A DNA stretch of 64,000 nt from Burkholderiales bacterium (GCA_043743335.1 JAYTWR010000193.1:32692-96691); one strand, 5' to 3'. Counted from the first letter of the stretch, positions 1 through 14,855 are shown. Numbers and translations: made by a program. Notes: a model not told the origin generated them from the sequence alone.

Positions 1-370
1 CCGCAAACTCGCCGCGCTGCGCCGCGCGCACAAAATCGTAAAGCATGTCTTGATCTTGCACCCAGATGTCGGCGTCTATCCACAGAATCACATCGGCGTT
101 TTTGACATAGTTCGGCAGAAAGGGCCGTGCGGTCATGGCCTTGAACCACTCCGGAACGCCTTTCCACTGCGTCACATCCACGTCCCAGCCGGGATTGATC
201 AGGGCGTGCCCGGCGTGTTCCAGCTCGGCACGCTGTGCTGCCGTCAATCCGACATCCAGAACGTGTAGATGGAAATTGCCTAAGCGGTCTATACCGGCCA
301 GCGAGCGTATGAGGTGCCCGAGGCTGGCAAAATAGATATCGTTGGCCGCGGTGGCAATGGCGATGCGCAT
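1..370 (-). CDS. glycosyltransferase family 8-like protein, N-terminal part (gene runs off window start)
   Basis: Own translation of the minus strand from the ATG at 370-368: MRIAIATAANDIYFASLGHLIRSL...VILWIDADIWVQDQDML. It has an N-terminal A-x-D-x-Y motif and a DAD (DXD) motif of GT-A/GT8 type. It is absent from the ORF track because no stop lies inside the window. Confidence 0.55.
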   Translation of the reverse strand, partial: MRIAIATAANDIYFASLGHLIRSLAGIDRLGNFHLHVLDVGLTAAQRAELEHAGHALINPGWDVDVTQWKGVPEWFKAMTARPFLPNYVKNADVILWIDADIWVQDQDMLYDFVRAAQRGEFA

Positions 371-444
371 GAGGTGCGGAGCATGATTCGAATGCGAGGC
401 ACTTTAGCATACCCCTGTACGCGCCGTCACCACGGCAGACTATA

Positions 445-2634
445 ATGCGCGTGCGCCGCAACCCGACAAAACCAGCACGCCTAACCTTCATGCCGCGATT
501 GGACGATCAACTGCAAAAAGCATGGGGCGCATTGCAAAGCGGCAACCTCGTCGGCGCCATCGGCGTTCTCGAAACCCTACTCCAGCGTGCGCCAGCCAAT
601 CCGCAAGCGCTGTGCCTGCTGGGCATGGCGCGCGTTGCAGCGGGCGATGCGCTCAACGCAGTAGCGCCACTGGAGCAATCGCTCAAGTCAGATGCGCGCA
701 ATGGCATGGCGCTGGACAGCTTGGGCCTTGCTTTTTTAAGCTTGGATCGTTTTGCCGACGCCGCGCAAGTGTTACAGCGGGCGGCCGAGATACCCGATGC
801 GCCGGCGGTCGTCTTCATGCGACTGGGGCTGGCGCTGCTGCATCTGAACGATGCGGCCGGCGCGGTGCAGCATCTGTCGCGCGCCGTGCGTCTGGACCCC
901 GCGGACCTCAATGGCAAACTGAATCTCGGCAAGGGCTTGTTGCGATTAGGTGATGCCGCAGCGGCGCGCGAGCAATTTTTAGCGGTGTTGCAAGAGGCCC
1001 CTAACGATTTGAATGCGCACGAGGGCGTCGCACAAAGTGGTGTGGCCTTGGGGCGTTTGCAAGAAGCCCTACCGCATCTGCGTTTTGTATCCGCTGCCGA
1101 GCCGCAAAACAGCGTCGCGCTATATGGTTTAGCGTCAGTGCTCTTTGAAACGGGCCAATTGGAAGAGGCTGAAATTCTGGCCGAGCGCCTGCTGACGCAA
1201 CAGCCTGATGTGGCTCACGCCTATACCTTGCTTTGTAACTGCTTGTTTATTAACAATAAATTTGATAAGGCTTTGGCGCTTTTGGAGCAGGGCTACGAGC
1301 GCACTGGCGATGGCGAACTGCTGGGTCTGCTGACCTTTCAGTATCGGCAAATCTGCGATTGGCCCAAATGGCGGGCGTCGTGGGACAAGCTGGCGCCGCT
1401 GGTGGACACCCGCGCGGCGTTAGGCAGTCCGTTTTGGCTGTTGTGTGAGCCGATTACCGCCGCGCAACAACTGCGCTACACGCAAGCATGGGCCAAGGCG
1501 CGCTTTAACGGCATTCTCCCCATGCCGCCCGCAGGTAACACTGCGCCGCGCGAAGGCCGCCGCTTGCGCGTGGGTTATTTGTCATCGGATTTTCAGGAGC
1601 ACGCCGCTGCCTATTTGATTGCAGATGTCATCGAACATCACGACCGCAGCCGTTTTGAAACATTTGCGTATTCGTATGGCCCGCAAGACAACAGCGCCAT
1701 GCGCCAACGCCTGCTGCTGGCGTTTGATCACTTTGTCGACATTGCGTGGGAGACCGACGACGCGGCTGCTGCACGCATCCGTGCTGATCAGATCGACATT
1801 CTGGTGGAACTCAAAGGCTACACCGTGGGCGACCGCATCACTATCATGGCGCGCCGACCCTGCAACATACAGGTGACGTGGCTGGGTTATCCCGGCACCA
1901 CCGGCGCGCCGTTTGTGGATTACCTGATTGCCGACGCCTACATTATTCCGCCGGGCGAAGCGTCAACGTGCTGCGAGCAGGTCGTGCGCATGCCGCACAG
2001 CTACCAGCCGAATGACCGCAAGCGCGTGGTTGCCGAGCCATTAAGCCGTGCCGAGTACGGCCTGCCCGAACGTGGACACCTATTTTGCTGTTTCAACCAA
2101 ACGTACAAGATCACGCCGGATGTATTTGCGGTGTGGATGCGCCTGCTGCAACGCATACCCGAAAGCGTGCTGTGGCTGGTGGATGGGCCTTCGCTGACGA
2201 AGGAAAATCTGTGGCGCGAAGCCCAGTCGTTGGGCGTTGAGCGAAACCGACTCATTTTCGCGACACGCAAGCCCTATGCAGAGCATCTTGCGCGGTACCG
2301 TGTGGCGGATCTTGCGCTCGATACCTTTCCCTACACCTCACACACTACGCTAAGCGATGCCTTGTGGTGTGGTTGCCCGACCGTGGGCTTGCGTGGCGAA
2401 ACGTTTGCCTCGCGGGTTTCGGGTAGCCTGCTCATGGCGGCAGGACTGCCAGATTTGATTACGCATAATCTTGACGATTACGAGCAACTGGCCTGTCAGA
2501 TTGCTGGTAGCGCAGACGTCCTGAAAAACCTGCGCTCAAGGGTGGCGCAAGCCAAGGCAACGGCACCGCAATTTGACTCAGCTTTGTTCGCACGCGACCT
2601 CGAAGCAATTTTCGAAACCCTGATCCGACGATGA
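445..2634 (+). CDS. TPR-repeat protein with C-terminal GT41 (O-GlcNAc transferase/SPINDLY-like) glycosyltransferase domain
   Basis: 729-aa ORF. The N-terminal half has TPR-like A/L-rich 34-aa periodicity. The C-terminal half carries GYLSSDF..EHHDRSRFE, WLGYPGTTGAPFVDYLIAD, FCCFNQTYKITP and LDTFPYTSHTTLSDALWCGCP, typical of bacterial OGT-like enzymes. The start could instead be the ATG at 490. Confidence 0.85.
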   Translation: MRVRRNPTKPARLTFMPRLDDQLQKAWGALQSGNLVGAIGVLETLLQRAPANPQALCLLGMARVAAGDALNAVAPLEQSLKSDARNGMALDSLGLAFLSLDRFADAAQVLQRAAEIPDAPAVVFMRLGLALLHLNDAAGAVQHLSRAVRLDPADLNGKLNLGKGLLRLGDAAAAREQFLAVLQEAPNDLNAHEGVAQSGVALGRLQEALPHLRFVSAAEPQNSVALYGLASVLFETGQLEEAEILAERLLTQQPDVAHAYTLLCNCLFINNKFDKALALLEQGYERTGDGELLGLLTFQYRQICDWPKWRASWDKLAPLVDTRAALGSPFWLLCEPITAAQQLRYTQAWAKARFNGILPMPPAGNTAPREGRRLRVGYLSSDFQEHAAAYLIADVIEHHDRSRFETFAYSYGPQDNSAMRQRLLLAFDHFVDIAWETDDAAAARIRADQIDILVELKGYTVGDRITIMARRPCNIQVTWLGYPGTTGAPFVDYLIADAYIIPPGEASTCCEQVVRMPHSYQPNDRKRVVAEPLSRAEYGLPERGHLFCCFNQTYKITPDVFAVWMRLLQRIPESVLWLVDGPSLTKENLWREAQSLGVERNRLIFATRKPYAEHLARYRVADLALDTFPYTSHTTLSDALWCGCPTVGLRGETFASRVSGSLLMAAGLPDLITHNLDDYEQLACQIAGSADVLKNLRSRVAQAKATAPQFDSALFARDLEAIFETLIRR

Positions 2635-2683
2635 AGCTTGAAAAACGTCTATTTCACCAAAGTTCCGGTTTGGCGCAACGGGA

Positions 2684-2977
2684 CTACCTGATCGAGAATT
2701 CGACGGGCGGTGTGGTTCTAAGCTTGCGCTCCTTGCGTACGACTGCCGCGCGCACGGCGTGCGCGATATCCGCTTGCGTTGCCGGTCGGCGGCGAGTCGC
2801 AAGAAGGCCGTAAGCCTCCTCGGGCGCAAAGCGCTTTCCGGTGTCAACAGGGCGCAGCAGTATCCCTTGTGCTGTGCGCTCGAACGCCACCTCACCGCCG
2901 ATGCAGATTTGCCCTGCCTCGCGTAAGTGGCGTGGAATCACGATTTGCCACTTGTTGGAAACCTTTGACGTGTCCAT
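2684..2977 (-). CDS. AbrB/MazE/SpoVT-family antitoxin-like DNA-binding protein (no intact partner toxin)
   Basis: 97 aa. WQIVIPRHLREAGQICIGGEVAFERTAQGILLRP is a swapped-hairpin AbrB-type domain, and the C-terminal tail resembles VapB-type antitoxins. Confidence 0.7.
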   Translation of the reverse strand: MDTSKVSNKWQIVIPRHLREAGQICIGGEVAFERTAQGILLRPVDTGKRFAPEEAYGLLATRRRPATQADIAHAVRAAVVRKERKLRTTPPVEFSIR

Positions 2978-3080
2978 CAGAGCGCTCCTAATTATTTAAC
3001 AATAATAACGTGCATTGTGCCGCGCTCCCGCCGGGCTTGCAACACGAACGCTGCGCCACGCTTGTTCGTCAATCGGAAAA

Positions 3081-3144
3081 CACCCATAAAAAAACGGGTG
3101 CCGAAGCGCCCGTTAAATCTCAACTTAAAGGTGTAAAGCTAAGT
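3081..3144. repeat. 64-bp direct repeat copy 1 (contains a minus-strand rho-independent terminator downstream of vapC)
   Basis: 62/64 identical to 4693-4756. The hairpin ACGGGTGC-CGAA-GCGCCCGT is followed by a T-run when read on the minus strand. Confidence 0.85.
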
Positions 3145-3179
3145 GTCGAAAAACGCGCAGGGCATTAGCCCGATTTCCA

Positions 3180-3599
3180 TTAAGGCGCGTTCCAAGGATT
3201 AATCAAATCGATGCCAGCGCCCTTATAGTCTCGCACGTTGCGGGTTGCCAGAACAAAACCTCGCCTGATAGTAATAGCGGCAATCGCGCAATCGCCAAAG
3301 TGAATCGGATTACCCGCTGCTTGCGTGCCCGCGAACACACGCCCAAATGCGTGCGCGCTGTCCTGATCGAACGATAGTACACGCCCCTCAAACTGGGCGA
3401 CTAATTCTGTCGTCGCGCCCTGCAACGCCGTGCGGCGTTTCCCCACGGGCAATGTCTCGATGCCCGCCTGTAGCTCGGCCAAGGTAATTGTAGTGAGGTA
3501 GAGCGTTTCCGGTGCCTGCCGATCCAACCAAGCCAACACCGCCGCATCAGGCTTCGATTTGAGGGGTTCGGAGACAAGATGGGTATCCAGAATAATCAT
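3180..3599 (-). CDS. vapC: PIN-domain toxin, VapC/FitB family
   Basis: 139 aa. It starts MIILDTHLVSE (PIN N-terminal acidic motif) and ends LATRNVRDY. It overlaps the upstream antitoxin gene by 4 bp. Confidence 0.85.
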   Translation of the reverse strand: MIILDTHLVSEPLKSKPDAAVLAWLDRQAPETLYLTTITLAELQAGIETLPVGKRRTALQGATTELVAQFEGRVLSFDQDSAHAFGRVFAGTQAAGNPIHFGDCAIAAITIRRGFVLATRNVRDYKGAGIDLINPWNAP

Positions 3600-3832
3600 G
3601 ATTCAATGTTCACCGGCCGAACCGGGCTACGCCTGCGCGTTTTGGGAAATTCAATGCCCCCATATTTACGACCGATTTCCGCTAACGCTGTGCCCATGCC
3701 ACGCTGCGGTCGCACCGCGTTTTGTAGGATCATGCGCATTTCGGCCTCGGTACTGCGCCCACGCTGTTCAGCGCGTTTCTTTAGCGCGCGCAGGGTTTCA
3801 TCGGGCAAATTTCGGATGGTCACGGCTGCCAT
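3596..3832 (-). CDS. vapB: ribbon-helix-helix antitoxin, FitA/VapB (Arc/MetJ-like)
   Basis: 78 aa. MAAVTIRNLPDETLRALKKRAEQRGRSTEAEMRMIL is an RHH motif. The gene is coupled to vapC through an ATGA overlap. Confidence 0.75.
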   Translation of the reverse strand: MAAVTIRNLPDETLRALKKRAEQRGRSTEAEMRMILQNAVRPQRGMGTALAEIGRKYGGIEFPKTRRRSPVRPVNIES

Positions 3833-3838
3833 AATTAA

Positions 3839-3917
3839 CTATCGCTATCACTATCACTATCACTATCGTTTCGTCAAATTGATACCGCTACGATATCATT
3901 TGCAACAAATGATAGCA
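3839..3917 (-). promoter_or_regulatory. putative vapBC operator/promoter region: 5 tandem CTATCR hexamers plus a TATCATTTG-CAA-CAAATGATA palindrome
   Basis: Hexamers lie at 3839-3868, immediately upstream of the vapB ATG. The palindrome lies at 3894-3914 and includes TGATAGCA (3910-3917). A TTGACG -35-like hexamer on the minus strand sits just upstream of the hexamer array. Confidence 0.45.
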
Positions 3918-3965
3918 ACTCGGCGCTGGTTCAGAGCCCTATGACGCAAGGTCAAAGGAACCACT

Positions 3966-4277
3966 TCATCCACGGGTGCGTTTGAAGGCCCGCAGGGTGT
4001 TCGCGGCAAACATCTGGTTGCGGCCTACGATATGGCTGGGAACCAATTTGCCCGATTGAACCTGGCGGCGTAGCGTCGGCATCGACACCTCAAGATATTC
4101 AGCCGCTTCGGCGGCGGAAAAGCGTTCCCGTTGCAAATGACCAAACACCTGCTCGTGCGTGAAATCATCTTCGCGGAACGCTTGGCCCGTCAATAGAGAA
4201 AAAAACCGGGCGCGCTCGGTCTCGGGCATGCGCTTCATCTCGGTAAAGAGATCTTCTGCCTTCAGTGCGTGGCTCAT
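3966..4277 (-). CDS. helix-turn-helix (excisionase/MerR-like) antitoxin of a toxin-first TA pair
   Basis: 103 aa. The C-terminal AAEAAEYLEVSMPTLRRQVQSGKL is an HTH. It overlaps the upstream RelE/ParE-like gene by 4 bp. Confidence 0.6.
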   Translation of the reverse strand: MSHALKAEDLFTEMKRMPETERARFFSLLTGQAFREDDFTHEQVFGHLQRERFSAAEAAEYLEVSMPTLRRQVQSGKLVPSHIVGRNQMFAANTLRAFKRTRG

Positions 4278-4597
4278 TGCACAACTCCTTTGCCGTTTTC
4301 CAGCCGCAGATAATGCTTCAATGCGTCGTAAAAATTCTCGTGCATTCCAACTTTATAGAAATCGATTGCCAAGAATTCCAAGGGCGCATGCTTCGTTGGC
4401 GCTCTATAGGCCAGCAGGTATTCTTGGCGATTGAAGCGGAACTTGTAAACCCGTATGCCGGCCAGATCGCCTACCTTCAGCTCGCCGATATCCGGTGTTT
4501 CGCAAACCGCCTCGACCGCATCCTCAATGGCCAGTTGCAAGGGTTTGTGCGCTTTTTTGACATACTGGACGAACGGGCGCTTAAAATTCGATCGCAT
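4274..4597 (-). CDS. RelE/ParE-superfamily toxin (toxin-upstream, HigB-like arrangement)
   Basis: 107 aa. The KKLQKALEDA-like N-terminus, GELKVGDLAGIRVYKFRFNRQEYLLAYR, is typical of type II RelE/ParE toxins. Confidence 0.7.
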   Translation of the reverse strand: MRSNFKRPFVQYVKKAHKPLQLAIEDAVEAVCETPDIGELKVGDLAGIRVYKFRFNRQEYLLAYRAPTKHAPLEFLAIDFYKVGMHENFYDALKHYLRLENGKGVVQ

Positions 4598-4603
4598 GAT
4601 TCT

Positions 4604-4632
4604 ATATTAGATATTGTTTGATTTTAAGTCAA
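4604..4632 (-). promoter_or_regulatory. sigma70-type promoter TTGACT-N17-TAATAT for the toxin-antitoxin operon, placed for a leaderless transcript
   Basis: On the minus strand the -35 is at 4632-4627 and the -10 at 4609-4604. Only 6 nt separate the -10 from the ATG at 4597, and no SD is present. Confidence 0.5.
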
Positions 4633-4692
4633 ATCATAGCTTAATGAGATGAATAACCGACCAAGTCCTTCCACAAAGCACGAACTTCTTGG

Positions 4693-4756
4693 CACCCATA
4701 AAAAAACGGGCGCCGAAGCGCCCGTTAAATCCCAACTTAAAGGTGTAAAGCTAAGT
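4693..4756. repeat. 64-bp direct repeat copy 2 (3' UTR and terminator of the porin gene)
   Basis: 62/64 identical to 3081-3144. The hairpin ACGGGCGC-CGAA-GCGCCCGT (4706-4725) plus a T-run on the minus strand begins 11 nt after the porin stop. Confidence 0.85.
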
Positions 4757-4767
4757 TACATCCGTGC

Positions 4768-6063
4768 TTAGAACTTGTGAACCATGCCGAAGGCAATTGC
4801 GTTGGAATCCGAACCCGGGTTGACGGTCGTGGTGGAGCCGCCAATTTCGTAGTTCGCGTTATTCTTGTTGTCAAGACGCGAGTAGCCGAGCGTCAACTCC
4901 GTACGCTTGGACAGCATGTGTACGTAACGAATCGACGCTATCGACGCGCCGGTGCCAGAGTAGCCACCCAGAGCAATCGCTGTCGGCAACGGACGCTGAC
5001 CCATCGCCGGGCCGAACGCCACTGCAGTGGCCAAGCCGCCGGTCACATCACCCGCGCGCGAGTACGCTGCGCGCAAGCCGTGCGGCCCGGAGATCGTCCA
5101 GTCAATACCGACATGCCAGGTGTTGACTTTGGTCGATTGCGCCAGAGCCGAGGTGTCAGCCTTTTGCTGGGAATACTGCGCGCCCAGTTTCAGGCTGTTC
5201 GAGAACGTGTACGAACCCGCCAACACCCACGCACTTTCAGAGCTGCCGTTACAGGCGCTCAACGCCGTAACCGGGCCGGCTGCCACTGCGTTCGGGCAAG
5301 CTGCGCCTGCGGCCGTTACGCCGTAGAAGTCTTTATGCTTTTCATACGCCAAGCCCAAGCTCAACGGGCCGTTGTTGTATTGACCGCCAATGGACCACAG
5401 ACGCGCTTTTAACTGGCCGTTGGTCGCACCCGTTTGGTTGTTGCCCACGGTAACAGACGCCATACCCGTGAAACCGCCAAAGTTCGGCGTGTCATAGGAC
5501 AGCAGGTTGTTTTGACGACGACGCCATGCGCCGGGGGTAGTGGCTAGGCCCAGTTGGGCTGCCGTGCCGTTCGGAGCGGAGATACTATAGGTGGATGATT
5601 GGCCATACAAAATGCGGCCCGCACCGTAAACACCGGTGTCGTTGGCACCGACCATGTCATTGGTCACACGCTTGAACGGGGTGCCCCAGTTGCCCATGAA
5701 AATGTTACCGAAACCGCCTTTGACGCCCATGGCGCTGTCGCGATTGCACAAACCTTGTGAGGTAGCACCGGTGCCCGTGTTAGCGCTGCCACGATAGTCC
5801 ATGGTGGTTTCGCACTGGAACCACGCCGACATACCGCCGCCCAGTTTTTCTTCGCCACGGAAGCCCAAGGCTGAACCGGGGTTTTGCCATTGGTCATAGC
5901 GGCTGCGCGGATCAGTTGCTGTGCGATCAGACGGCTTGATCGACGCGTATTCGGCAACCACTGCGCCATACACATTGACGGTTGCGTTTTGTGCGATAGC
6001 TACCGGGGCCATCATTGCGCCCAGTGCGCCGGTTACTGCTGCTGCTAATAGTTTCTTCTGCAT
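4768..6063 (-). CDS. outer-membrane porin (Gram-negative trimeric porin family)
   Basis: 431 aa. Signal peptide MQKKLLAAAVTGALGAMMAPVAIAQ, Gly/Tyr/Asn-rich beta-strand pattern, and the C-terminal motif FGMVHKF ending in Phe. Confidence 0.9.
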   Translation of the reverse strand: MQKKLLAAAVTGALGAMMAPVAIAQNATVNVYGAVVAEYASIKPSDRTATDPRSRYDQWQNPGSALGFRGEEKLGGGMSAWFQCETTMDYRGSANTGTGATSQGLCNRDSAMGVKGGFGNIFMGNWGTPFKRVTNDMVGANDTGVYGAGRILYGQSSTYSISAPNGTAAQLGLATTPGAWRRRQNNLLSYDTPNFGGFTGMASVTVGNNQTGATNGQLKARLWSIGGQYNNGPLSLGLAYEKHKDFYGVTAAGAACPNAVAAGPVTALSACNGSSESAWVLAGSYTFSNSLKLGAQYSQQKADTSALAQSTKVNTWHVGIDWTISGPHGLRAAYSRAGDVTGGLATAVAFGPAMGQRPLPTAIALGGYSGTGASIASIRYVHMLSKRTELTLGYSRLDNKNNANYEIGGSTTTVNPGSDSNAIAFGMVHKF

Positions 6064-6354
6064 GTAAATCTCCTTTTAAATTAAGCTTCCCCCACGCAAC
6101 GCAAGCCACTGATATCGGGTGCAACTGAACGGGAGTGTTTTTACTGACGCACTACTACTTAAAATACGCGCCTATTATCTGTTTACCCTCGCTCTAGCTC
6201 AACAGTACACGGGATAAAACTGACACAGAGTCTGCGCTTGTTGTGTCCATGCAACAGGTGATAAATACGCGTTAACGGGTATATCTAACGCCGTTAAATC
6301 GCTTTGTGCCGCCGTAAAACCGGCGGCTCGCCTTTGCATAAAACCTACAATATC

Positions 6355-6373
6355 ATTTAAAATCAATTACTTA
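6355..6373 (-). repeat. AT-rich box, 15/19
   Basis: Lies 21 nt upstream of the TPR-GT9 gene start. Confidence 0.6.
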
Positions 6374-6393
6374 TCGTTAGTGTTATTTAACCC

Positions 6394-8349
6394 ATGCCCC
6401 TTGCAACCGACCGCCAAATTGAGTCCGCCTTACAAAACCACCAACAGGGTGACTTGACGGGGGCCATGGCCGCTTACCGCCAGATATTGACGCAGGCGCC
6501 CGGCGATACGCTGGCCACGGGGCTGCTGGGCACCGCATTGCTGCAATCGGGCGATGCGCAACAGGCTTTACCCTATCTAGAAGCCGCTGTATCCAAGCAG
6601 CGCAACAACGCCGGGTTTTTGGGCCATCTGGCGCAGGCTTACTTTGAATTGACTATGTATGCCGACGCGGCAGAGCATTTTCGCAAGGCCTTGCGACTTG
6701 CGCCCGCCGAAGCGCAGTTTCAGCTTGGCTTGGCCAATTCGCTGGCGCTGCAAGGGCAGTACGCCGAAGCGCGGCGTTTACTGGAGCGCGTGCTGGCGCG
6801 GCACCCGCAACACGCCATGGCTTGGTTCAATTTAGGCCATGTGCTGCGCGACTTGCACGAACCCGCGCCCGCGATAGCGGCGTATCAAAAAGTGTTGGCC
6901 CTCGCGCCGGATTTTGCCGAGGCACGCAATGCGCTAGGCAATGTGCTGCATACCGCCATGCAGCTTGCCGCTGCCGAGCGCGAATACCGGCTGTGCATTC
7001 GCGATGCGCCGCAGTTTTTGCCCGCGCGGCAAAATTTGGTGTCGGTGCTGATTGATCAAGGTCAATTTGATGCAGCAGAAGCCGCGTGTCGCGACATTCT
7101 GCAACTCGACCCGGCCAACGCCCACGCGCACGGCATGCTGGCGGACACTTTTAACGCCCGCGGACGTTTGGTGGACGCCACACGCCACTATGCCGAAGCG
7201 GCGCGACTCGCGCCGGACGACATCGCCACGCGCATCAGCCTCGCTACCAAGCTGTGCGATACCGGCGACATCACGGGCGGCCTGCGCGAATTTGGCGAGG
7301 TGCTGCAACAACAGCCGATAGCGCAGCCAGCGATGCCGGAACTACATCAGGCTTTATCGACGATGTTTCTCGCGCACGGGTTTTTGGCCGAAGGCTGGGC
7401 GCATTATCGTCAGCGGCCCGCGTTCATCGCGTTTCGCGACAAACTCGCTGGCGTCACACTGACGCAAACCTTGCCTGAAATTTTGGCGGGTTTGCCTATT
7501 AGCGTGTTACGTGAACAGGGGCTGGGCGACGAAATATTTTTCCTGCGCTACGCGCGCTTGCTGACGCAGCGCGGCGCGCGCGTGACGTATCGCTGCAGCG
7601 ATGCCATTGCCAGCTTGATCAAACGCTTGCCTGACGTGGCCGAGGTGATTGCCAGCGACGCCGCAGTGCCCGCCTGCTATGCGGCGATTATGGCTGGGGA
7701 TTTACCCCACGCGCTGGGCAATTTGCCGATAGAACTTGGCGGTGCCGATCCGCTTTGGGGGTTCCCTTGGACACAAGCCCATTATTGCGCGCTGCCGCAG
7801 CCGAGTATTCGGATCGACCCCTTGCCCGACCGCGTGGCGCAAATGCGCGCGCAGCTTGCCGAAATCGGCCCGCCACCCTACATCGGCGTCACATGGCGTG
7901 GCGGCACGCCCCCCAGCGAACAAGGCGCAGGCTCGTGGGTGCTGTTCAAAAACGTGGCCATTGCGCAACTGGGCGCTGCGTTAAAGCCCTGTAAAGGCAC
8001 GTTTATCGCCCTGCAACGCAACCCGGAGCCGGGCGAAATCGCTGCGCTGGAAGCCACACTTGGTGCAAAGGTTCACGATTTTACCCATAAAAACAAAGCG
8101 TTAGAGGATATGCACGCCCTGCTCGCGCTGATCGATGAGTACGTCGGCGTGAGCAACACCAATATGCACCTGCGTGCCGCCGCCGGCAAAACGGCGCGCG
8201 TGCTGGTGCCCGCACCCGCGGAGTGGCGCTGGATGGCGACGGGCGACGCGTCACCGTGGTTTCCCGGCTTTTCGGTGTACCGGCAAAGCCTACACGGCAC
8301 GTGGGACGCAGCGCTGAGCCAACTCCAGCACGATCTGACCGCGCGCTGA
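6394..8349 (+). CDS. TPR-repeat protein with C-terminal GT9 (heptosyltransferase-like) glycosyltransferase domain
   Basis: 651 aa. TPR repeats fill the first ~330 aa. The C-terminal part has GLGDEIFFLRYARLL and VGVSNTNMHLRAAAGKTARVLVP, resembling GT9 signatures. Confidence 0.6.
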   Translation: MPLATDRQIESALQNHQQGDLTGAMAAYRQILTQAPGDTLATGLLGTALLQSGDAQQALPYLEAAVSKQRNNAGFLGHLAQAYFELTMYADAAEHFRKALRLAPAEAQFQLGLANSLALQGQYAEARRLLERVLARHPQHAMAWFNLGHVLRDLHEPAPAIAAYQKVLALAPDFAEARNALGNVLHTAMQLAAAEREYRLCIRDAPQFLPARQNLVSVLIDQGQFDAAEAACRDILQLDPANAHAHGMLADTFNARGRLVDATRHYAEAARLAPDDIATRISLATKLCDTGDITGGLREFGEVLQQQPIAQPAMPELHQALSTMFLAHGFLAEGWAHYRQRPAFIAFRDKLAGVTLTQTLPEILAGLPISVLREQGLGDEIFFLRYARLLTQRGARVTYRCSDAIASLIKRLPDVAEVIASDAAVPACYAAIMAGDLPHALGNLPIELGGADPLWGFPWTQAHYCALPQPSIRIDPLPDRVAQMRAQLAEIGPPPYIGVTWRGGTPPSEQGAGSWVLFKNVAIAQLGAALKPCKGTFIALQRNPEPGEIAALEATLGAKVHDFTHKNKALEDMHALLALIDEYVGVSNTNMHLRAAAGKTARVLVPAPAEWRWMATGDASPWFPGFSVYRQSLHGTWDAALSQLQHDLTAR

Positions 8350-8366
8350 AGCGCTAAAATCTGCGC

Positions 8367-10286
8367 ATGCCTTCGTCACCGCTTTCCGCCGCCTACCACG
8401 AAATCAAACGCCTGCGCAGTTGCGGCGACATCCATGCCGCGCTGGCGATGCTGCAAGCGCAGCGGCCCGCGGCGGATGGCGATACCTTCGAAGCCGTCGT
8501 CACGTTATACATCGCGGGCGATCTCGACAGCGCCGTTAACGTATGCCGCACCCACCCATGGCAGGCACCATGGGCGATCAGCATGAGCCGCGCGTTGATC
8601 GACCTGCTGGCGAACCACAACGCGGCGCAGGCGCTCACGCACGCACGCGTCGCCCTGCGGGATCAAAACGCGGCACCGGATGCGCAGGCGTTTTATCTCT
8701 CATTGTTGCAAGCCAATGGGCTGATCGACGAAGCCTGCGGGTACATGCTGGACCATCTCGCACCGCCGCCGCTGGGCGAGACGTTTCTGCTGACCGTGAT
8801 GGCCGAAATCGCTGCCGCCGCGCAGCAATGGATGCCCGCCTATCAGCTTGGGTGCGCGGTAATGGCTACGGACACCTCGAACTACCGCGCGCTCATCGCG
8901 CTAAGCCTAGCGAACTACCAGTTCAATAATTTTCACGAAGCACTGGGCAACGCGCAGTGTGCCGATCTTATCCATCGCGGCGCGCTGCCGTCCACGCTGC
9001 AACTCATGCGTTGCCACAACCGGCTGGGGGATTACTACAGCGCCGTCGCCGCGTTTGATAGCCTTGACGCCGCGATCACGCCGCCGCCTGAGCTGCACGT
9101 GGCGCTGGGTATGGCATACGCCGGGCTGGAAAATTCGGCGCAGGCCGAGGCCGCCTATTGCGCCGCACTGACGGCAAATCCGCCGCCCATCGAAGCCCTG
9201 CGCGCGCTGCTGAAAATCTATCTCGACTCGGCGGATCACGATGCGCTCGCGGCGTTCGTCACGGCGCACGCGGCACTTATCGATGACGACACCGAGTGCA
9301 TTTTGCGCCAAGGCATGGAGCAGTTACGCCAAGGCAAGCGCGACGAGGCTGCGGCCTTGTTCAGAAAATGCAATGAAATCAATATCTTGCAAAAAGATGC
9401 TTACAGTCTCTTACCGTGGCCAGTGCCTGAACCGCGCGTCCGCCACGATTACGAGCAACTGGATTTACTGCGCCGACGCGGCAAACTCAACCCCGCCGGG
9501 CGGGATGCGCTGCGCGTGCTGCAACCGTTTTACGAGCAATCGGGCAACACGGCGCGCACCTTTGCGCCGCAGGGGGCGTTGGCTGACGCCTTCAAAAAAG
9601 CCTTGTGCGACATTCACTATTATCCGGATCCGGTGTTCAACGAAGTGGCGCTGGGCGCCAACGACTTTGCCACGCTCGAAGCGCAATACGCGGCTGAGAA
9701 TATCGTCGTCATCGACAATTTCCTGTCAGCCGAAGCGCTGGGCGAATTGCGCCGCTACAGCGAAGAAGCAACAGTGTGGAAGGTGTACAACGCGGGCGGC
9801 TACACCGCCGGGCTGATGGTGAAGGGTTTCGCACCGCGCGTGTTGCTGGCGATTGCCGATGAACTGCGACACAAAATGCCGCAGATCATCCAACACTATC
9901 CGCTGTTGCAGGCGTGGGGCTTCAAATACGATCAGCGCTTGCAGGGCATTACCCTGCACGCAGATTTTGCGCGGGTGAACGTAAACTTCTGGATTACGCC
10001 GGACGAGGCCTGCGAAGACCCCACCACCGGCGGCATGGTGGTCTACAACCACCCGGTGCCGAAAAGCTGGACGTTTGAAGATTACAACGTCAATCCACCG
10101 AAGCTAAAAGCCTTTCTGAAGGTGCACGACGCCACGCCACTGCGCGTGCCGTATCGCGCAAACCGCTGCGTGTTGTTCGACTCTAGCCTGATCCATGTGA
10201 CCGATGAACTGCACTTCAAGCCGGGATTTGAAAATCGTCGCGTGAATATCACGCTGCTGTTCGGTCGCGTGCGCGCCACGGAGTAA
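8367..10286 (+). CDS. helical-repeat (TPR-like) protein with C-terminal cupin/2OG-Fe(II)-oxygenase-like domain
   Basis: 639 aa. The C-terminus reads ITLHADFARVNVNFWITPDEA...GGMVVYNH...FDSSLIHVTDE...RRVNITLLFG, which gives a candidate H-x-D...H facial triad in a beta-rich segment. Confidence 0.45.
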   Translation: MPSSPLSAAYHEIKRLRSCGDIHAALAMLQAQRPAADGDTFEAVVTLYIAGDLDSAVNVCRTHPWQAPWAISMSRALIDLLANHNAAQALTHARVALRDQNAAPDAQAFYLSLLQANGLIDEACGYMLDHLAPPPLGETFLLTVMAEIAAAAQQWMPAYQLGCAVMATDTSNYRALIALSLANYQFNNFHEALGNAQCADLIHRGALPSTLQLMRCHNRLGDYYSAVAAFDSLDAAITPPPELHVALGMAYAGLENSAQAEAAYCAALTANPPPIEALRALLKIYLDSADHDALAAFVTAHAALIDDDTECILRQGMEQLRQGKRDEAAALFRKCNEINILQKDAYSLLPWPVPEPRVRHDYEQLDLLRRRGKLNPAGRDALRVLQPFYEQSGNTARTFAPQGALADAFKKALCDIHYYPDPVFNEVALGANDFATLEAQYAAENIVVIDNFLSAEALGELRRYSEEATVWKVYNAGGYTAGLMVKGFAPRVLLAIADELRHKMPQIIQHYPLLQAWGFKYDQRLQGITLHADFARVNVNFWITPDEACEDPTTGGMVVYNHPVPKSWTFEDYNVNPPKLKAFLKVHDATPLRVPYRANRCVLFDSSLIHVTDELHFKPGFENRRVNITLLFGRVRATE

Positions 10287-10300
10287 CAGCGCCTGCCGTT

Positions 10301-10355
10301 TTAAATCCCCAACTTAGATGCCGAAGTTAGATACCGAAGTTAGATCCCTAAGCCG
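10301..10355. repeat. TTAAATCCCCAACTTA core plus 13-bp tandem units (GATGCCGAAGTTA / GATACCGAAGTTA / partial third)
   Basis: Seen directly. The core is near-identical to part of the 64-bp repeat (TTAAATCCCAACTTA). The element fills the convergent junction and encodes the last residues of the aldo/keto reductase. Confidence 0.5.
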
Positions 10356-11335
10356 CCCAATTGCTTTTCAGGATAGCGCGTGCCCGCCGCCGCGTGTAGC
10401 GGAAACGCCGCGTTCAGCCGCGCGATATCATCCGCGCTTAACAGCACATCCATCGCCGTGCAATTCTGCTCCAGATACGCACGCCGCTTGGTGCCGGGAA
10501 TCGGCACCACATGCGGCCCTTGCGCCAGCAGCCAGGCCAGCGCGATCTGCGCCGGGGTGGCTTTTTTAGCCGCCGCTATATCTTCAATCGGCTTAATCAA
10601 GTCTTTGTTTTTATTGATATTTTCTACCCCGAAGCGTGGGTGGTCGCGGCGCCGGTCGCTGGGCAATAAGGCATCCAGTGTTTTCAGGGTGGCCGTGAGA
10701 AAGCCGCGCCCGAGTGGCGCGTAGGCCATGAACGCAATACCTAATTCGCGGCACGCGGGAATGATGGCGTGCTCGACGTCGCGGCTCCACAACGAATATT
10801 CGGTTTCCAGCGCCACTATCGGATGCACCTTGTGCGCGCGGCGTAGGGTTTCCGGCCCGGCTTCGGAAAGCTGCAAATAGCGCACCTTGCCTTGCTCCAC
10901 CAGCCGCTTCATGGCACCCACAGTGTCTTCAATCGGCACGGTGGGGTCTACGCGGTGCAGGCCATAAATGTCGATCACATCCACGCCCAGCATTTTGAGA
11001 CTTTTGTCGCAAGCCTGCGGCACGTAATCGGGGTGGCCGCCGGTGAGCGCGGATTTGGTGCCACCGCCCAAGGCCAGATTGCCGAACTTGGTGGCGATCA
11101 ACACTTTGTCGCGACGGCCTTTGACGGCCTTGCCGACCAAGGCCTCATTCACGCCCGCGCCGTAGGCGTCCGACGTGACCATGAGGTTCACGCCGAGATC
11201 CACCGCCCGGTGGATGGTCGCAATCGATTCTGCGTCGTCCGGCACGCCGTAGCTGATGGACATGCCCATGCAGCCTAGGCCCATGGCGGATACTTGAGGG
11301 CCGTTGTGGCCCAGTTGGATTGTACGCATGGTCAT
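10340..11335 (-). CDS. aldo/keto reductase
   Basis: 331 aa with LGCMGMS, DTSDAYG-like (VTSDAYGAG), LHRVDP and IPGTKR motifs. Confidence 0.9.
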   Translation of the reverse strand: MTMRTIQLGHNGPQVSAMGLGCMGMSISYGVPDDAESIATIHRAVDLGVNLMVTSDAYGAGVNEALVGKAVKGRRDKVLIATKFGNLALGGGTKSALTGGHPDYVPQACDKSLKMLGVDVIDIYGLHRVDPTVPIEDTVGAMKRLVEQGKVRYLQLSEAGPETLRRAHKVHPIVALETEYSLWSRDVEHAIIPACRELGIAFMAYAPLGRGFLTATLKTLDALLPSDRRRDHPRFGVENINKNKDLIKPIEDIAAAKKATPAQIALAWLLAQGPHVVPIPGTKRRAYLEQNCTAMDVLLSADDIARLNAAFPLHAAAGTRYPEKQLGGLGI

Positions 11336-11364
11336 TGTGACTCCTGATGGGGTGCGATGTCGCG

Positions 11365-12600
11365 TTAAAAGATTTCAGCTAGGCACGCGTTCAAGGCGAA
11401 TTCGGTTTGTGGCAGATTAGCGGTGAAACCCAAAGACTCGCTTAGCGTACGGCCTTCGCGCAGCTTGACCGCCTCCGGCGCAACATGCCAGCAGGCGATG
11501 CCCAAAGCGCTCGCCAGTCGCGCGAACTCCGGCTGCTGTTTTGTGCTTAATATCAAACACTTACGTGCATTCCGCGCAAACAGCAGGTTTGCCATGTTAG
11601 CGCCGTACGGCCCGGCGACGACTTCTGCGGATGCCGCAAAGCGCATTTGTTCCGCGAAACTGTGGGCCTCGGGGTCGATGGCCACAAAGCCGTGGCGCTC
11701 GAACAGTTGAACGACCTCAGCCTCGTTCAGCAACGGGCGGTCTTTCGCATTGCGTCGCGCGAGATACAGCCTGCGCGGGCCATCCTGCGCCGTGGCGGGC
11801 AAGTGCGCGCGCAGGTAATTCAAACCCGTCACGCTGTGCGCGTGATGAAAATACGACGTGGTGCAGTAGTACAGCTCGCGACACTCAACACGCACGTGGG
11901 CGCGATGGCGGATCAAGCGGTTTTCGGCAATACCCATCGCGGCGAGCGAGGCCAATTGGTAGGGCGCAGCGTCACCGTGCAACAGGATCGGCAGATTACC
12001 CAAATCGCCCAAGTCACCCGTGTCACCCGTGTCACCATCGGCCGCATACGCCGCCAGCCGCGGCAGGCTGCCGAAAAACCACGCGGCGTAGTTGGTGGTG
12101 GCGGGCAAATAGAGCGCGGCGTCATTCACGCGCGCGGTTTCGCGATGGCGCACGGCGACGATAATTTGGCGCTCCGACGCGACGATGCCCGGAAACTCCG
12201 GCGGTAGGTGATGGCACAACTCGGCGTTGTTGTAGCCGATGTTGTCGTTGAGCAATTGCCCGGCGGCGGTCAATAAAATATTGGGCGCGATGGCGGTGCA
12301 ACGCGCCATCGCCAGCAGCCGCAAGGCCGGCGGTTGCCAAGGTGCCGCCCAAGGCTCGAACTGCGCCAGCCCCGCGAGTAACCGTGCGGTGGATGCCACT
12401 GCGGCATCTTCGAAAACCCGCAGTTGGCGCACGCCTTTGGCGCTCGCGGCAGCCTCAACCGCGAGCACAGGGTGCGCCAAAGCTATTGACGCTAACCCTT
12501 TGATTTGTAAATAATTTTTTGCGGCCTTGAGCGCCGCCGTCACGTTGCCTTCGGCAAGTTTGAGGGCGGCGAACTGCCGAGCCTGATCTGCCTCGGTCAT
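11365..12600 (-). CDS. GT61/DUF563-family glycosyltransferase
   Basis: 411 aa. RLYLARRNAKDRPLLNEAEVVQLFERHGFVAIDPEAHSFAEQMRFAASAEVVAGPYGANMANLLF matches the DUF563 C-terminal pattern. Confidence 0.65.
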   Translation of the reverse strand: MTEADQARQFAALKLAEGNVTAALKAAKNYLQIKGLASIALAHPVLAVEAAASAKGVRQLRVFEDAAVASTARLLAGLAQFEPWAAPWQPPALRLLAMARCTAIAPNILLTAAGQLLNDNIGYNNAELCHHLPPEFPGIVASERQIIVAVRHRETARVNDAALYLPATTNYAAWFFGSLPRLAAYAADGDTGDTGDLGDLGNLPILLHGDAAPYQLASLAAMGIAENRLIRHRAHVRVECRELYYCTTSYFHHAHSVTGLNYLRAHLPATAQDGPRRLYLARRNAKDRPLLNEAEVVQLFERHGFVAIDPEAHSFAEQMRFAASAEVVAGPYGANMANLLFARNARKCLILSTKQQPEFARLASALGIACWHVAPEAVKLREGRTLSESLGFTANLPQTEFALNACLAEIF

Positions 12601-12628
12601 TACCCGCTAGCCTGCGCCCAACGACAAC

Positions 12629-13318
12629 TTACTTGGCGTAGGTCACCGTCAAATCGCCGACGCCTTGCACATGCCCTTCAAGCGTGTCGCCCTTTTGCAC
12701 CGGGCCCACGCCCGACGGCGTGCCGGACATGATGATGTCGCCAGCGCGCAGGGTAATCAATTTCGACAGATACGCAATGGTCTCAGGCACGTTCCAGATC
12801 ATGTCGGCCAAATCACCCGTTTGCTTGACCACGCCATTGACTTTAAGCGTGATCGCGCCTTTGGCCGGGTGGCCCACCATGGCTACGGTTTTGAGCGCGG
12901 TGCATGGCGCAGATTCATCAAACGCCTTGCCCATTTCCCACGGGCGACCCATTTTCTTGGCTTCGCCCTGCACATCGCGGCGCGTCATGTCGAGGCCGAC
13001 GCCGTAGCCGAACACGTGATCCAGCGCTTTTTCCACAGGAATATCCTTGCCGCCCTTGCCGATAGCAACAATCATTTCGATTTCGTGATGCAAATCTTTG
13101 GTGACGGTCGGATAGGCAATTGTCGCGCCGCTCATCACAATCGCGTCTGCTGGCTTCATAAAGAAAAACGGCGGCTCGCGATCCGGGTCATGGCCCATTT
13201 CGCGCGCGTGCTCGGCATAGTTGCGGCCCACGCAGTAGATGCGGCCGACGGGAAACGCCGCATTGCTTTCGGCGACGGGTAATGTGGTGGGGCCGGGGAA
13301 ATCAATGGCGTAACTCAT
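12629..13318 (-). CDS. fumarylacetoacetate hydrolase (FAH) family protein
   Basis: 229 aa with IYCVGRNYAEHAREMG, HHEIEMIVAIGKGG and SGTPSGVGPV. Confidence 0.9.
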   Translation of the reverse strand: MSYAIDFPGPTTLPVAESNAAFPVGRIYCVGRNYAEHAREMGHDPDREPPFFFMKPADAIVMSGATIAYPTVTKDLHHEIEMIVAIGKGGKDIPVEKALDHVFGYGVGLDMTRRDVQGEAKKMGRPWEMGKAFDESAPCTALKTVAMVGHPAKGAITLKVNGVVKQTGDLADMIWNVPETIAYLSKLITLRAGDIIMSGTPSGVGPVQKGDTLEGHVQGVGDLTVTYAK

Positions 13319-13488
13319 GGTGTAATCCTTCGAGAGAGAATTTGCGCGCTTTCACGCGCGGCGATGCGCAACGGACGGGCGATTATCCGGGAAACCGTTC
13401 CTTTGGGTCAAACACCTGCGTGCCGTCACCGCACCGCATCGGGCAAGCCGGTTGAGAATAGCGCCGCACTCCACTATGCTCTCGGCCC

Positions 13489-14211
13489 ATGCCATCGACG
13501 CAAACCTTGAATCAAATCGCTTTTTTCTGGGTGGGGCAGGATGTCACCATCCCGTCGCTGCTGGTGCGCTCGATACGCCACGCGTTCGGCGCGCAATTCA
13601 GCATTCTGCAACTTTCAGACCGCGAGACGCCGCCGGTGGCGGGCGTCACCACGCACAAGAAAATCAAGCTCTCGCCGCACATTATGGTGGCACGGCTGGA
13701 GGCTTTTGCCGCTTCTGCGGTCACCACGCCCACGCTGTTTCTCGACGCCGACATGTTGGTGCTGCGCCCGTTTGACCTGCCGCCGCTGGCCGAAAACGAT
13801 GTCGGCGTCACCCCGCGCGGCGAACGCGACACCATTCGCTTTTCCAAACGCGAATGGGCGGAGTTTCCGGAATTCACCGAGAAGGATTCCGCGCAAATGA
13901 TGCCCTACATCTACTCTTTTGTGTACGTGCGCTCGCCGGTGATTTTTCTGCGACAACTGAATGCCTTGCGCAAAATGCCCAAGCGCTTTCACCGCTGGTA
14001 CGGCGATCAGATGACGCTGAAGAGCGAGCTGGACGCGCCGGGGCGGTTTACGCTACGCAATTTTGATGTCAATGTTTACAACCGTACCGTGCGCTCACGC
14101 GTGGAGTTTGAAGAAGTCCGCGACGCATCCAACGCAGTCTGCATCGCGCACTTCAAAGGGCCGGACAGCAAAGCCGCCATGCACGAATCGCTGGCGATGT
14201 TGGCCGGCTAG
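13489..14211 (+). CDS. putative nucleotide-sugar (GT-A, DXD) glycosyltransferase
   Basis: 240 aa. IAFFWVGQD...LFLDADMLVLRP gives a DXD motif in a GT-A-like context. Assignment is weak. Confidence 0.4.
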   Translation: MPSTQTLNQIAFFWVGQDVTIPSLLVRSIRHAFGAQFSILQLSDRETPPVAGVTTHKKIKLSPHIMVARLEAFAASAVTTPTLFLDADMLVLRPFDLPPLAENDVGVTPRGERDTIRFSKREWAEFPEFTEKDSAQMMPYIYSFVYVRSPVIFLRQLNALRKMPKRFHRWYGDQMTLKSELDAPGRFTLRNFDVNVYNRTVRSRVEFEEVRDASNAVCIAHFKGPDSKAAMHESLAMLAG

Positions 14212-14632: not shown

Positions 14633-14855
14633 CCTGTCGACTGGGCCCCACGGGCGGCGCGGTACGTGATGTAATGCCAACTATCGATTGCTGTACGTAA
14701 AATAATACCGGTTTTCCGTGAAATAGCCGGGTAAAGTGTGACCTGATTCACAGGCGGTTGGCGGCGGGTACTCGTAATCTTGCGCCCGCTGGTTCGACGC
14801 CACGTGCCCTGTGGTGCAACATCGTCGCGCAACATCGGCACAACAGGAGATACTG

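Follow-up and report, generated by a model that had tools for sequence, protein, structure and literature searches.

The question raised by this locus is whether a group of neighbouring genes for putative modifying enzymes, several of them fused to tetratricopeptide repeats (TPRs), serves the modification of proteins and, if so, whether the enzymes act together. The stretch analysed (the window, 64,000 nucleotides) is contig C193:32692-96691 of a 5.16-Mb, 97%-complete Burkholderiales genome of the metagenome-assembled genome (MAG) type. The original prediction, made from the window alone, had described seven open reading frames (ORFs) as such a constellation, and all seven were found in place (Table 1). 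They comprise a GT8-like glycosyltransferase (GT) gene, two TPR-GT41 genes (here GT41a and GT41b), a TPR gene labelled GT9 (here TPRX), an oxygenase-like gene (TPRY), a GT61 gene and a gene for a putative DXD glycosyltransferase (p240). Related loci are given L-numbers below and the genomes compared are given G-numbers.

The window covers part of a conserved neighbourhood of an uncultured Burkholderiales family, and this neighbourhood holds the genome's whole complement of soluble TPR-fused modification enzymes. Each enzyme family is single-copy in the genome, apart from GT41 with its two copies, and all copies are confined to approximately 22 kb of the 5.16 Mb (C193 31.4-53.8 kb), so their concentration in one stretch exceeds chance. 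The enzymes are predicted from their sequences to be soluble, as none has a signal peptide or membrane segment, and four of them carry TPR arrays. The reading that we favour, at a probability of roughly 45%, is that these soluble, TPR-guided enzymes would hydroxylate and glycosylate a protein substrate in the cytoplasm. The most valuable elements of the locus are an unmodelled family of TPR-2-oxoglutarate (2OG) oxygenases that is repeatedly paired with GT genes, and a lineage-wide expansion of TPR-GT-B enzymes.

Domain identity of the enzymes

TPRY begins 17 nt behind TPRX; of what had been predicted for this pair the adjacency stands, and the spacing of 18 bp is corrected by one nucleotide. 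Structures were predicted for full-length proteins, and the full-length searches of the PDB, whether by sequence, profile or fold, were dominated by TPR matches. The AlphaFold2 (AF2) model of TPRY has a predicted local distance difference test (pLDDT) score of 89 and consists of a helical-repeat superhelix of approximately 350 residues (1-350), a helical linker and an eight-stranded sandwich, the eight strands of a double-stranded beta-helix (DSBH) lying at residues 513-632. Its ligand set is H531-x-D533, H610 and R624/R625 (codons at 9957, 9963, 10194 and 10236). As assigned by DSSP, H531-x-D533 is located in the loop after strand II and H610 on strand VII, and R624/R625 start strand VIII, which in the model is the canonical metal and 2OG geometry. 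These residues are invariant among 45 close sequences (alignment A1) and among 19 diverse ones (alignment A3, down to 39% identity), and they hold across Betaproteobacteria, Nitrospirota and Alphaproteobacteria. When the model was searched with Foldseek against the viral structures in BFVD, the only non-TPR matches were 2OG/Fe(II) dioxygenases, P4H-like proteins and PhyH, with target TM-scores of 0.45-0.73 and E-values of 1e-4 to 1e-3. The cupin/2OG-oxygenase call of the original prediction is therefore borne out by the model, the fold search and the invariant HxD...H...RR pattern.

The C-terminal domain of TPRY has no Pfam match and no sequence or profile match in the PDB. In the PDB fold search the TPR part dominates and AspH appears at rank 38, with a TM-score of 0.22-0.29, and PF05118 (AspH) gives no match to TPRY; the proposed likeness to Asp/Asn beta-hydroxylases thus holds for the architecture and goes no further. 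Membership in the prolyl 4-hydroxylase (P4H) type, PF13640, was rejected, as a search of the genome with this hidden Markov model (HMM) finds a different gene and not TPRY, and hhalign of TPRY against a PF13640 set gives a probability of 11%. An exhaustive profile search with the DSBH domain returned 2,599 clusters at 50% identity, and no bridge to a known family was seen among the best 150 of these. The C-terminal 245 residues share 60-89% identity among 745 word-indexed homologues. The domain is present in 321 GTDB species representatives, mainly of this Burkholderiales family and also of Nitrospirota and Alphaproteobacteria (35-50% identity), and in nearly all members the 350-residue TPR-like superhelix is fused to the DSBH. 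The model and these comparisons support TPRY as a predicted Fe(II)/2OG oxygenase that founds a large family without a Pfam model.

At nine related loci a 165-aa Cys-rich ORF (CxxCxxCC...C...C, no Pfam match), which is absent in the window genome, lies between TPRX and TPRY (L002:9450-9947, L009, L012, L013, L016, L022, L024 and L026, and partially in L017). A longer TPRY relative of approximately 750 aa is found in Actimicrobium and similar genomes (L055, L066, L069, L076, L079 and L080) within a conserved gene set, its neighbours being a CHASE2-adenylate/guanylate cyclase, a 1,100-aa FecR-TPR-TonB-receptor-like protein, a Crp-type regulator, a C39-peptidase-like protein and a MetA-type outer-membrane protein.

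In TPRX, nine TPRs (residues 1-330) are followed by a C-terminal domain of 320 aa. The full-length AF2 model (pLDDT 92.6) contains the nine TPRs, two beta-alpha-beta halves (368-442 and 496-605) and a closing helix at 638-650. SPINDLY and OGT were the best matches in the PDB fold search, over 750-840 columns and both domains (E 9e-17); entries that consist of TPRs alone come close to this score, to which the catalytic half therefore contributes little. The C-terminal 320 aa, as a single sequence or as a profile, have no match in Pfam, NCBIfam or the PDB. PF01075, the GT9 model, finds nothing in the isolated C-terminal domain at E<=10 and does not find TPRX in a six-frame genome search at E<=1; three canonical PF01075 heptosyltransferase genes are present in the genome, on other contigs.

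Two GT9-like motifs can be recognised in TPRX, GLGD (376-379) and VSNTNMH (586-592). A permissive hhalign alignment is collinear with GT9 over 287 columns, in which GLGD pairs with the N-terminal GD motif of GT9 and VSNTNMHLRAA with NDSGxMHxAAA, the Asp of the GT9 'DSG' being replaced in TPRX; the hhalign probability against the GT9 set is only 20.7%. A TPRX paralogue in L004, with 29% identity in the catalytic part, reaches 21.1 bits with PF01075 (cut-off 22). GT9 membership was rejected as a family call, because PF01075 is blind to TPRX and the hhalign probability is low, and the resemblance was retained; from its model TPRX is a "TPR plus GT-B-like, GT9-resembling" enzyme and not a GT9 member. 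Of the label first given to this gene the TPR part is certain and the GT9 part is not established. More than 2520 homologues of TPRX were found, and the family members G198, G164 and G236 have 16-21 copies of the TPRX-type catalytic domain per genome, often in tandem arrays (G164:C17, G243:C1).

The two GT41 calls were confirmed. On their PF13844 scores of 312.6 bits (E 5e-93) and 288.5 bits, with a gathering cut-off of 25, GT41a and GT41b are unambiguously genuine OGT-type GT41 members, and they are the only two in the genome. The catalytic half of GT41a aligns end-to-end with residues 136-562 of XcOGT (2jlb_A, E 2.9e-83) and with human OGT (hOGT, E 4e-80), and His218 and Tyr387-Lys388 of XcOGT are aligned to identical residues in GT41a, the paralogue in which this was checked. 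We take these XcOGT residues to be the equivalents of H498, Y841 and K842 of hOGT, in part after the paper on the XcOGT structure. In that paper the Tyr-Lys pair adjoins the anomeric carbon, and the three hOGT residues are mutagenesis targets (PMC2556091). GT41b, whose catalytic half is 41% identical to that of its paralogue GT41a, lies between the Tim44-like gene and ubiJ. It is found at the same spot in L004 and L006 and is absent in L022, L025, L026, L028 and L031. As ubiJ comes directly after Tim44 in these five relatives, GT41b seems to have been inserted into the ubiE-ubiB cluster.

The GT61 gene, which is single-copy in the genome, scores 85.4 bits with PF04577 (cut-off 27) and is clearly a member of the family by this measure, in agreement with the GT61/DUF563 call. 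This family includes EOGT, POMGNT2 and the plant xylosyl- and arabinosyltransferases, and a faint sequence match to POMGNT2 structures was obtained (E 0.15). In L002 the slot between the aldo-keto reductase (AKR) and FAH genes that GT61 holds in the window is filled by a gene for a 326-aa PF13640 (P4H-type) 2OG oxygenase (L002:13034-14014, minus strand), and PF13640 genes lie on TPRX/TPRY contigs in three genomes of the genus (G001:C157, G004:C490, G006:C713). In L004:5932-7587, L006:4117-5811 and L007:3170-4828, GT61 is convergent with the divergent 551-aa TPRX paralogue mentioned above for its PF01075 score in L004; this partner is missing in the window.

The remaining two labels could not be established. 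The ORF at 1-370 (minus strand) is the 5' part, encoding the N-terminal 123 aa, of a 286-aa GT8-like gene (L001:18202-19062), the rest of which lies to the left of the window. With PF01501 (cut-off 24.3) the fragment scores 23.7 bits and the full gene 21.2 bits; a second GT8-like gene of 246 aa, directly downstream and outside the window, scores 19.8 bits, and the orthologues in L005, where they immediately follow the oxygenase gene, reach 20.2 and 23.6 bits. Both adjacent genes and their orthologues are thus under the cut-off, and a GT8 identity is a lead only. For p240, none of 272 homologues has a Pfam domain. In an alignment of 30 sequences all have D86 and at least 90% have D88; no Pfam match was obtained in these 30 members, nor any NCBIfam match or PDB profile match. 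The conserved D-A-D motif therefore stands, with no family or structure match behind it; p240 is possibly a small, unclassified GT-A enzyme, and "DXD glycosyltransferase" is a guess.

Gene order and conservation in relatives

The enzyme genes are interspersed with others (Table 1), and approximately 40 kb of the window to their right is occupied by housekeeping genes.

Table 1. Genes and features of the locus in left-to-right order, in window positions
Feature	Position	Strand	Remarks
Extracytoplasmic-function sigma factor, then MgtE	left end of gene order		
Two weak GT8-like genes	right one ends at 370	-	
TPR-GT41a	445-2634	+	729 aa; TPR + PF13844
Toxin-antitoxin island	2684-4756		AbrB-type antitoxin, PIN toxin, HTH gene; between GT41a and porin
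Porin_4 outer-membrane porin	4768-6063	-	PF13609 E 4.5e-42
TPRX	6394-8349	+	nine TPRs + two-Rossmann GT-B-like domain
TPRY	8367-10286	+	helical repeats + double-stranded beta-helix
AKR	between TPRY and GT61	-	
GT61 (DUF563)	11365-12600	-	411 aa, without TPR; PF04577 E 5.5e-24
FAH-family hydrolase	between GT61 and p240	-	
p240	13489-14211	+	240 aa; D86-A-D88 motif, WYGDQ 170-174
FimW-like protein	14811-16475	+	554 aa; after p240
DUF971 (GBBH-like_N) gene, ubiE, Tim44-like gene	between 554-aa gene and TPR-GT41b		
TPR-GT41b	18885-21158	+	PF13844 E 1e-85; then ubiJ, ubiB
Housekeeping genes	remaining 40 kb of window		e.g. pyruvate dehydrogenase, PBP2, RNase G, GatAB

A horizontally acquired island is unsupported, as the GC content is even throughout the window (0.56-0.61) and leaves no foreign mark on the stretch. 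A role of AKR and FAH as partners in a sugar pathway is likewise unsupported; they are generic YdjG/YcgM-like housekeeping genes with 70-94% identity across relatives. L002 and L004 lack the toxin-antitoxin island at this position, and in both of them the porin gene directly follows GT41a. As the original prediction had said, no Wzx/Wzy, sugar-nucleotide, flagellin or adhesin genes were seen when the larger ORFs were scanned from 19 kb upstream to the end of the window.

The relatives with the same genes are MAGs of uncultured Burkholderiales or "Betaproteobacteria" from lakes, soils and glacier streams. Some public MAG records that carry the locus have wrong species labels, namely 'Bordetella parapertussis', 'Streptomyces' and 'Streptomycetaceae' (L013, L017, L019, L020, L023, L033; L015, L035, L038). 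Distribution was examined mainly in 121 genomes of the same GTDB family, 21 of which belong to the genus. Of the 121, 108 have GT41 and 104 have the TPRX domain, which can reach 21 paralogues in a single genome, spread over many contigs; TPRY is present in 39 (15 of the 21 in the genus) and GT61 in 30. At the level of the order, TPRY was found in only 4 of 151 genomes. A TPRX orthologue accompanies TPRY in 30 of 39 genomes, compared with 32 of the 82 others (odds ratio 5.2, p 1e-4, kinship ignored).

Synteny of GT41, porin and TPRX extends over at least six genera; the three share a contig, at distances of 3-6 kb, and TPRY, where present, is with them at 3-10 kb. Wherever the DNA is readable, GT41a and TPRX have the porin gene between them (L002, L004, L009, L010, L011, L013, L019, L023, L024, L030 and L040). 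More telling than this synteny are the re-arrangements of TPRY. The order TPRX to TPRY is seen in the window and at about 17 loci, and in L005, the closest relative, TPRY is followed by the two GT8-like genes with gaps of 12 and 4 nt. In L004, L006 and L007 the end of TPRY overlaps or abuts the start of p240. GT41 precedes TPRY in L040 and also in the alphaproteobacterial MAG L072, where a gap of 4 nt separates TPRY from a bona fide TPR-GT41 gene, and in L075 four GT41 genes flank a tandem pair of TPRY genes. What had been called a 'constellation' is more aptly described as two or three linked pairs in a conserved stretch of the chromosome than as one pathway.

Possible action, rival explanations and substrates

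The mechanism that we propose is as follows. The TPR arrays would bind protein substrates in the cytoplasm, and the GT41 and GT-B enzymes would add sugars from common nucleotide sugars; with such donors, genes for sugar synthesis would not be needed nearby. TPRY would hydroxylate a side chain of a protein substrate and would act with a neighbouring glycosyltransferase, here TPRX, on the same protein, where it may either create the hydroxyl that is then glycosylated or add a second mark. The protein-modification reading of the original prediction is kept in so far as the enzymes are soluble, lack signal peptides, include four that bear TPRs and are in no case assigned to lipopolysaccharide (LPS) or capsule pathways, whereas its GT9, GT8 and DXD-glycosyltransferase labels are not established.

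Several observations weigh against cooperation of these enzymes on a protein. The cluster, as read from its gene order, is not a single operon, since its genes fall into five or more transcription units, distributed over the two strands, and porin, toxin-antitoxin, reductase, hydrolase and ubiquinone genes are interleaved with the enzyme genes. TPRX fails the GT9 HMM tests and has its GT-B fold from a predicted model, and the E-values of the TPRY fold matches are modest. Co-conservation, the absence of which had been named as grounds for dropping the idea, is found in part: the set is syntenic in close relatives, and its members vary independently, the overlap of TPRY (39/121) and GT61 (30/121) being no more than expected by chance (p 0.37). 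The co-occurrence statistics moreover ignore phylogeny. Among 52 close loci only 20, and among 28 distant loci only 2, have a gene of one of these GT families at a distance of up to 3 kb from TPRY, and other TPRY loci sit beside TctC/acyl-CoA or CHASE2-cyclase/FecR/C39-peptidase genes. Finally, the housekeeping neighbours MgtE, AKR, FAH and ubiE-ubiB are just as syntenic as the enzymes, so synteny alone is no proof of a functional link.

The main rival, which we regard as a substantial possibility although short of even odds, is that the genes lie together mostly through inherited synteny and that the TPR-fused enzymes are independent, with different targets and no shared pathway. The equal synteny of the housekeeping genes and the independent variation of GT61 and TPRY are what it would lead one to expect, as are the wide distribution of GT41 and of the TPRX domain, with its many paralogues spread over many contigs, and the resemblance of GT41b to an insertion into the ubi cluster. 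It accounts less well for the meeting of TPRY with four GT families in several arrangements, among them overlapping genes, gaps of 4 nt and cases from another bacterial class, or for the location of all single-copy members within 22 kb of a 5.16-Mb genome.

Two further explanations are improbable. The acceptors of the enzymes could be glycans or lipids of the envelope (LPS core, glycolipid or periplasmic glucan precursors) and not proteins, the TPRs only assembling complexes. The GT9-like motifs of TPRX and the 21.1 bits of its paralogue with PF01075 agree with this, the porin gene is nearby with cell-envelope genes farther off, and GT8 relatives include LPS core transferases. However, PF01075 is blind to TPRX and the three canonical heptosyltransferase genes of this family are on other contigs, no lipid-carrier, flippase, polymerase or sugar-nucleotide gene was seen here, and the characterised GT41 enzymes (XcOGT, OGT, SPY and HMW1C) all act on proteins; the check for LPS core or capsule pathways that had been suggested assigned none of the enzymes to them. 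It is similarly doubtful that TPRY is an oxygenase of small molecules or nucleic acids, or a catalytically silent sensor, with its adjacency to GT genes meaningless. TPRY is unlike the characterised protein hydroxylase families (11% with PF13640, no match with PF05118), and many TPRY loci have metabolic or signalling contexts, but TPRY retains the complete set of metal and 2OG ligands without variation, and the superhelix present in nearly all members is also a feature of AspH and the collagen prolyl 4- and 3-hydroxylases (P4H and P3H).

If soluble enzymes do modify a protein here, the candidate substrates include the porin whose gene separates GT41a from TPRX, a type IV pilin from another part of the genome, and cytoplasmic proteins. 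The porin is an ordinary Sec-exported Porin_4 protein and is a candidate by position only. Ten type IV pilin-type genes are present in the genome, none of them on contig C193, so that no linked pilin was found. The 554-aa protein encoded 600 bp downstream of p240 has no match in the Pfam copy used, and its L004 homologue (70% identity) carries PF27104 FimW_N and PF27125 FimW_C. FimW is a c-di-GMP-binding regulator of type IV pili. Many relatives have the gene in the same place, upstream of the DUF971 gene and ubiE, and its position near p240 is a weak hint at best of a connection with pili. To our knowledge, bacterial OGT-type enzymes have had structures since 2008 and have almost no assigned substrates. 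In the literature searched, the pilin of Synechococcus was the only experimentally supported substrate of a bacterial TPR-GT41 enzyme (bioRxiv 10.1101/2021.07.06.449578 / PMC9306852).

Flagellin, proposed as a gene that might co-vary with the enzymes elsewhere in the genome, was rejected as a target: no flagellin gene was found in the 97%-complete genome, and in the genus it is present in 8 of 21 genomes and unrelated to the presence of TPRY. Cycling of the OGT/OGA kind was also rejected, as no GH84 O-GlcNAcase was found in the 21 genomes of the genus, and any modification would not be part of such a cycle.

GT41 and the TPR-GT-B family represent a lineage-wide toolkit, which would here have recruited a previously unclassified TPR-2OG oxygenase. 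If TPRY and the neighbouring glycosyltransferases do share one protein target, they would carry out a bacterial post-translational modification of a new kind, and the system would be available as a compact two-gene pair (6394-10286) that can be directly expressed and assayed. If they do not, there are still two large families without models, that of the DSBH domain and that of the GT-B-like domain.

Comparison with known systems

The TPR arrays of the enzymes described here are comparable to those of OGT, SPINDLY and AspH. The closest design to that of GT41a and GT41b is found in XcOGT of Xanthomonas campestris (PDB 2jlb/2vsn; PMC2556091) and in Ogt of Synechococcus elongatus, which have the same N-terminal TPRs and GT41 GT-B domain and are soluble and cytoplasmic; the latter is needed for pilin glycosylation (bioRxiv 10.1101/2021.07.06.449578 / PMC9306852). 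Unlike these, there are two paralogues here, one of them inside the ubiquinone cluster, with no linked pilin and no GH84 partner. FlmG of Caulobacter, a flagellin glycosyltransferase with TPR and GT-B parts (PMC7591256), has the design that TPRX shows in its predicted model. The FlmG/Maf model is nevertheless inapplicable, because the genome is without flagellin and flagellin is unrelated to TPRY in the genus. TPRX, with its GT9-like GLGD and xSNTNMH motifs, may also be compared with the GT9-like BAHT enzymes, protein heptosyltransferases (Aah and TibC, which act on AIDA-I and TibA) that are soluble, of the GT-B type and glycosylate proteins before export; it differs from them in failing PF01075 and in the replaced Asp of the GT9 'DSG', and no autotransporter gene was found near the cluster.

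For TPRY the nearest likeness in architecture is to AspH, the collagen P4H alpha subunit and the P3H enzymes, in which a DSBH that carries HxD...H and a basic residue for 2OG likewise comes after helical repeats. In contrast to these, TPRY is outside PF05118 and PF13640, is bacterial and predicted to be cytoplasmic, and superposes on AspH with the low TM-score given above. A hydroxylase and glycosyltransferases work in succession in the hydroxyproline glycosylation of Skp1 in Dictyostelium and Toxoplasma, where PhyA is followed by Gnt1 and further glycosyltransferases, and also in the glycosylation of collagen hydroxylysine. TPRY and its relatives might, by extension, be new bacterial cytoplasmic protein hydroxylases that work in tandem with GT41, TPR-GT-B and small GT-A enzymes to build hydroxylation-dependent O-glycans, possibly on a porin or pilin before export, which would make them a prokaryotic counterpart of the Skp1 and collagen pathways; we consider this specific form of the proposal rather unlikely. 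The Skp1 pathway combines a cytoplasmic 2OG hydroxylase with soluble glycosyltransferases, as is proposed for TPRY and its GT neighbours, and the two are alike in logic only.

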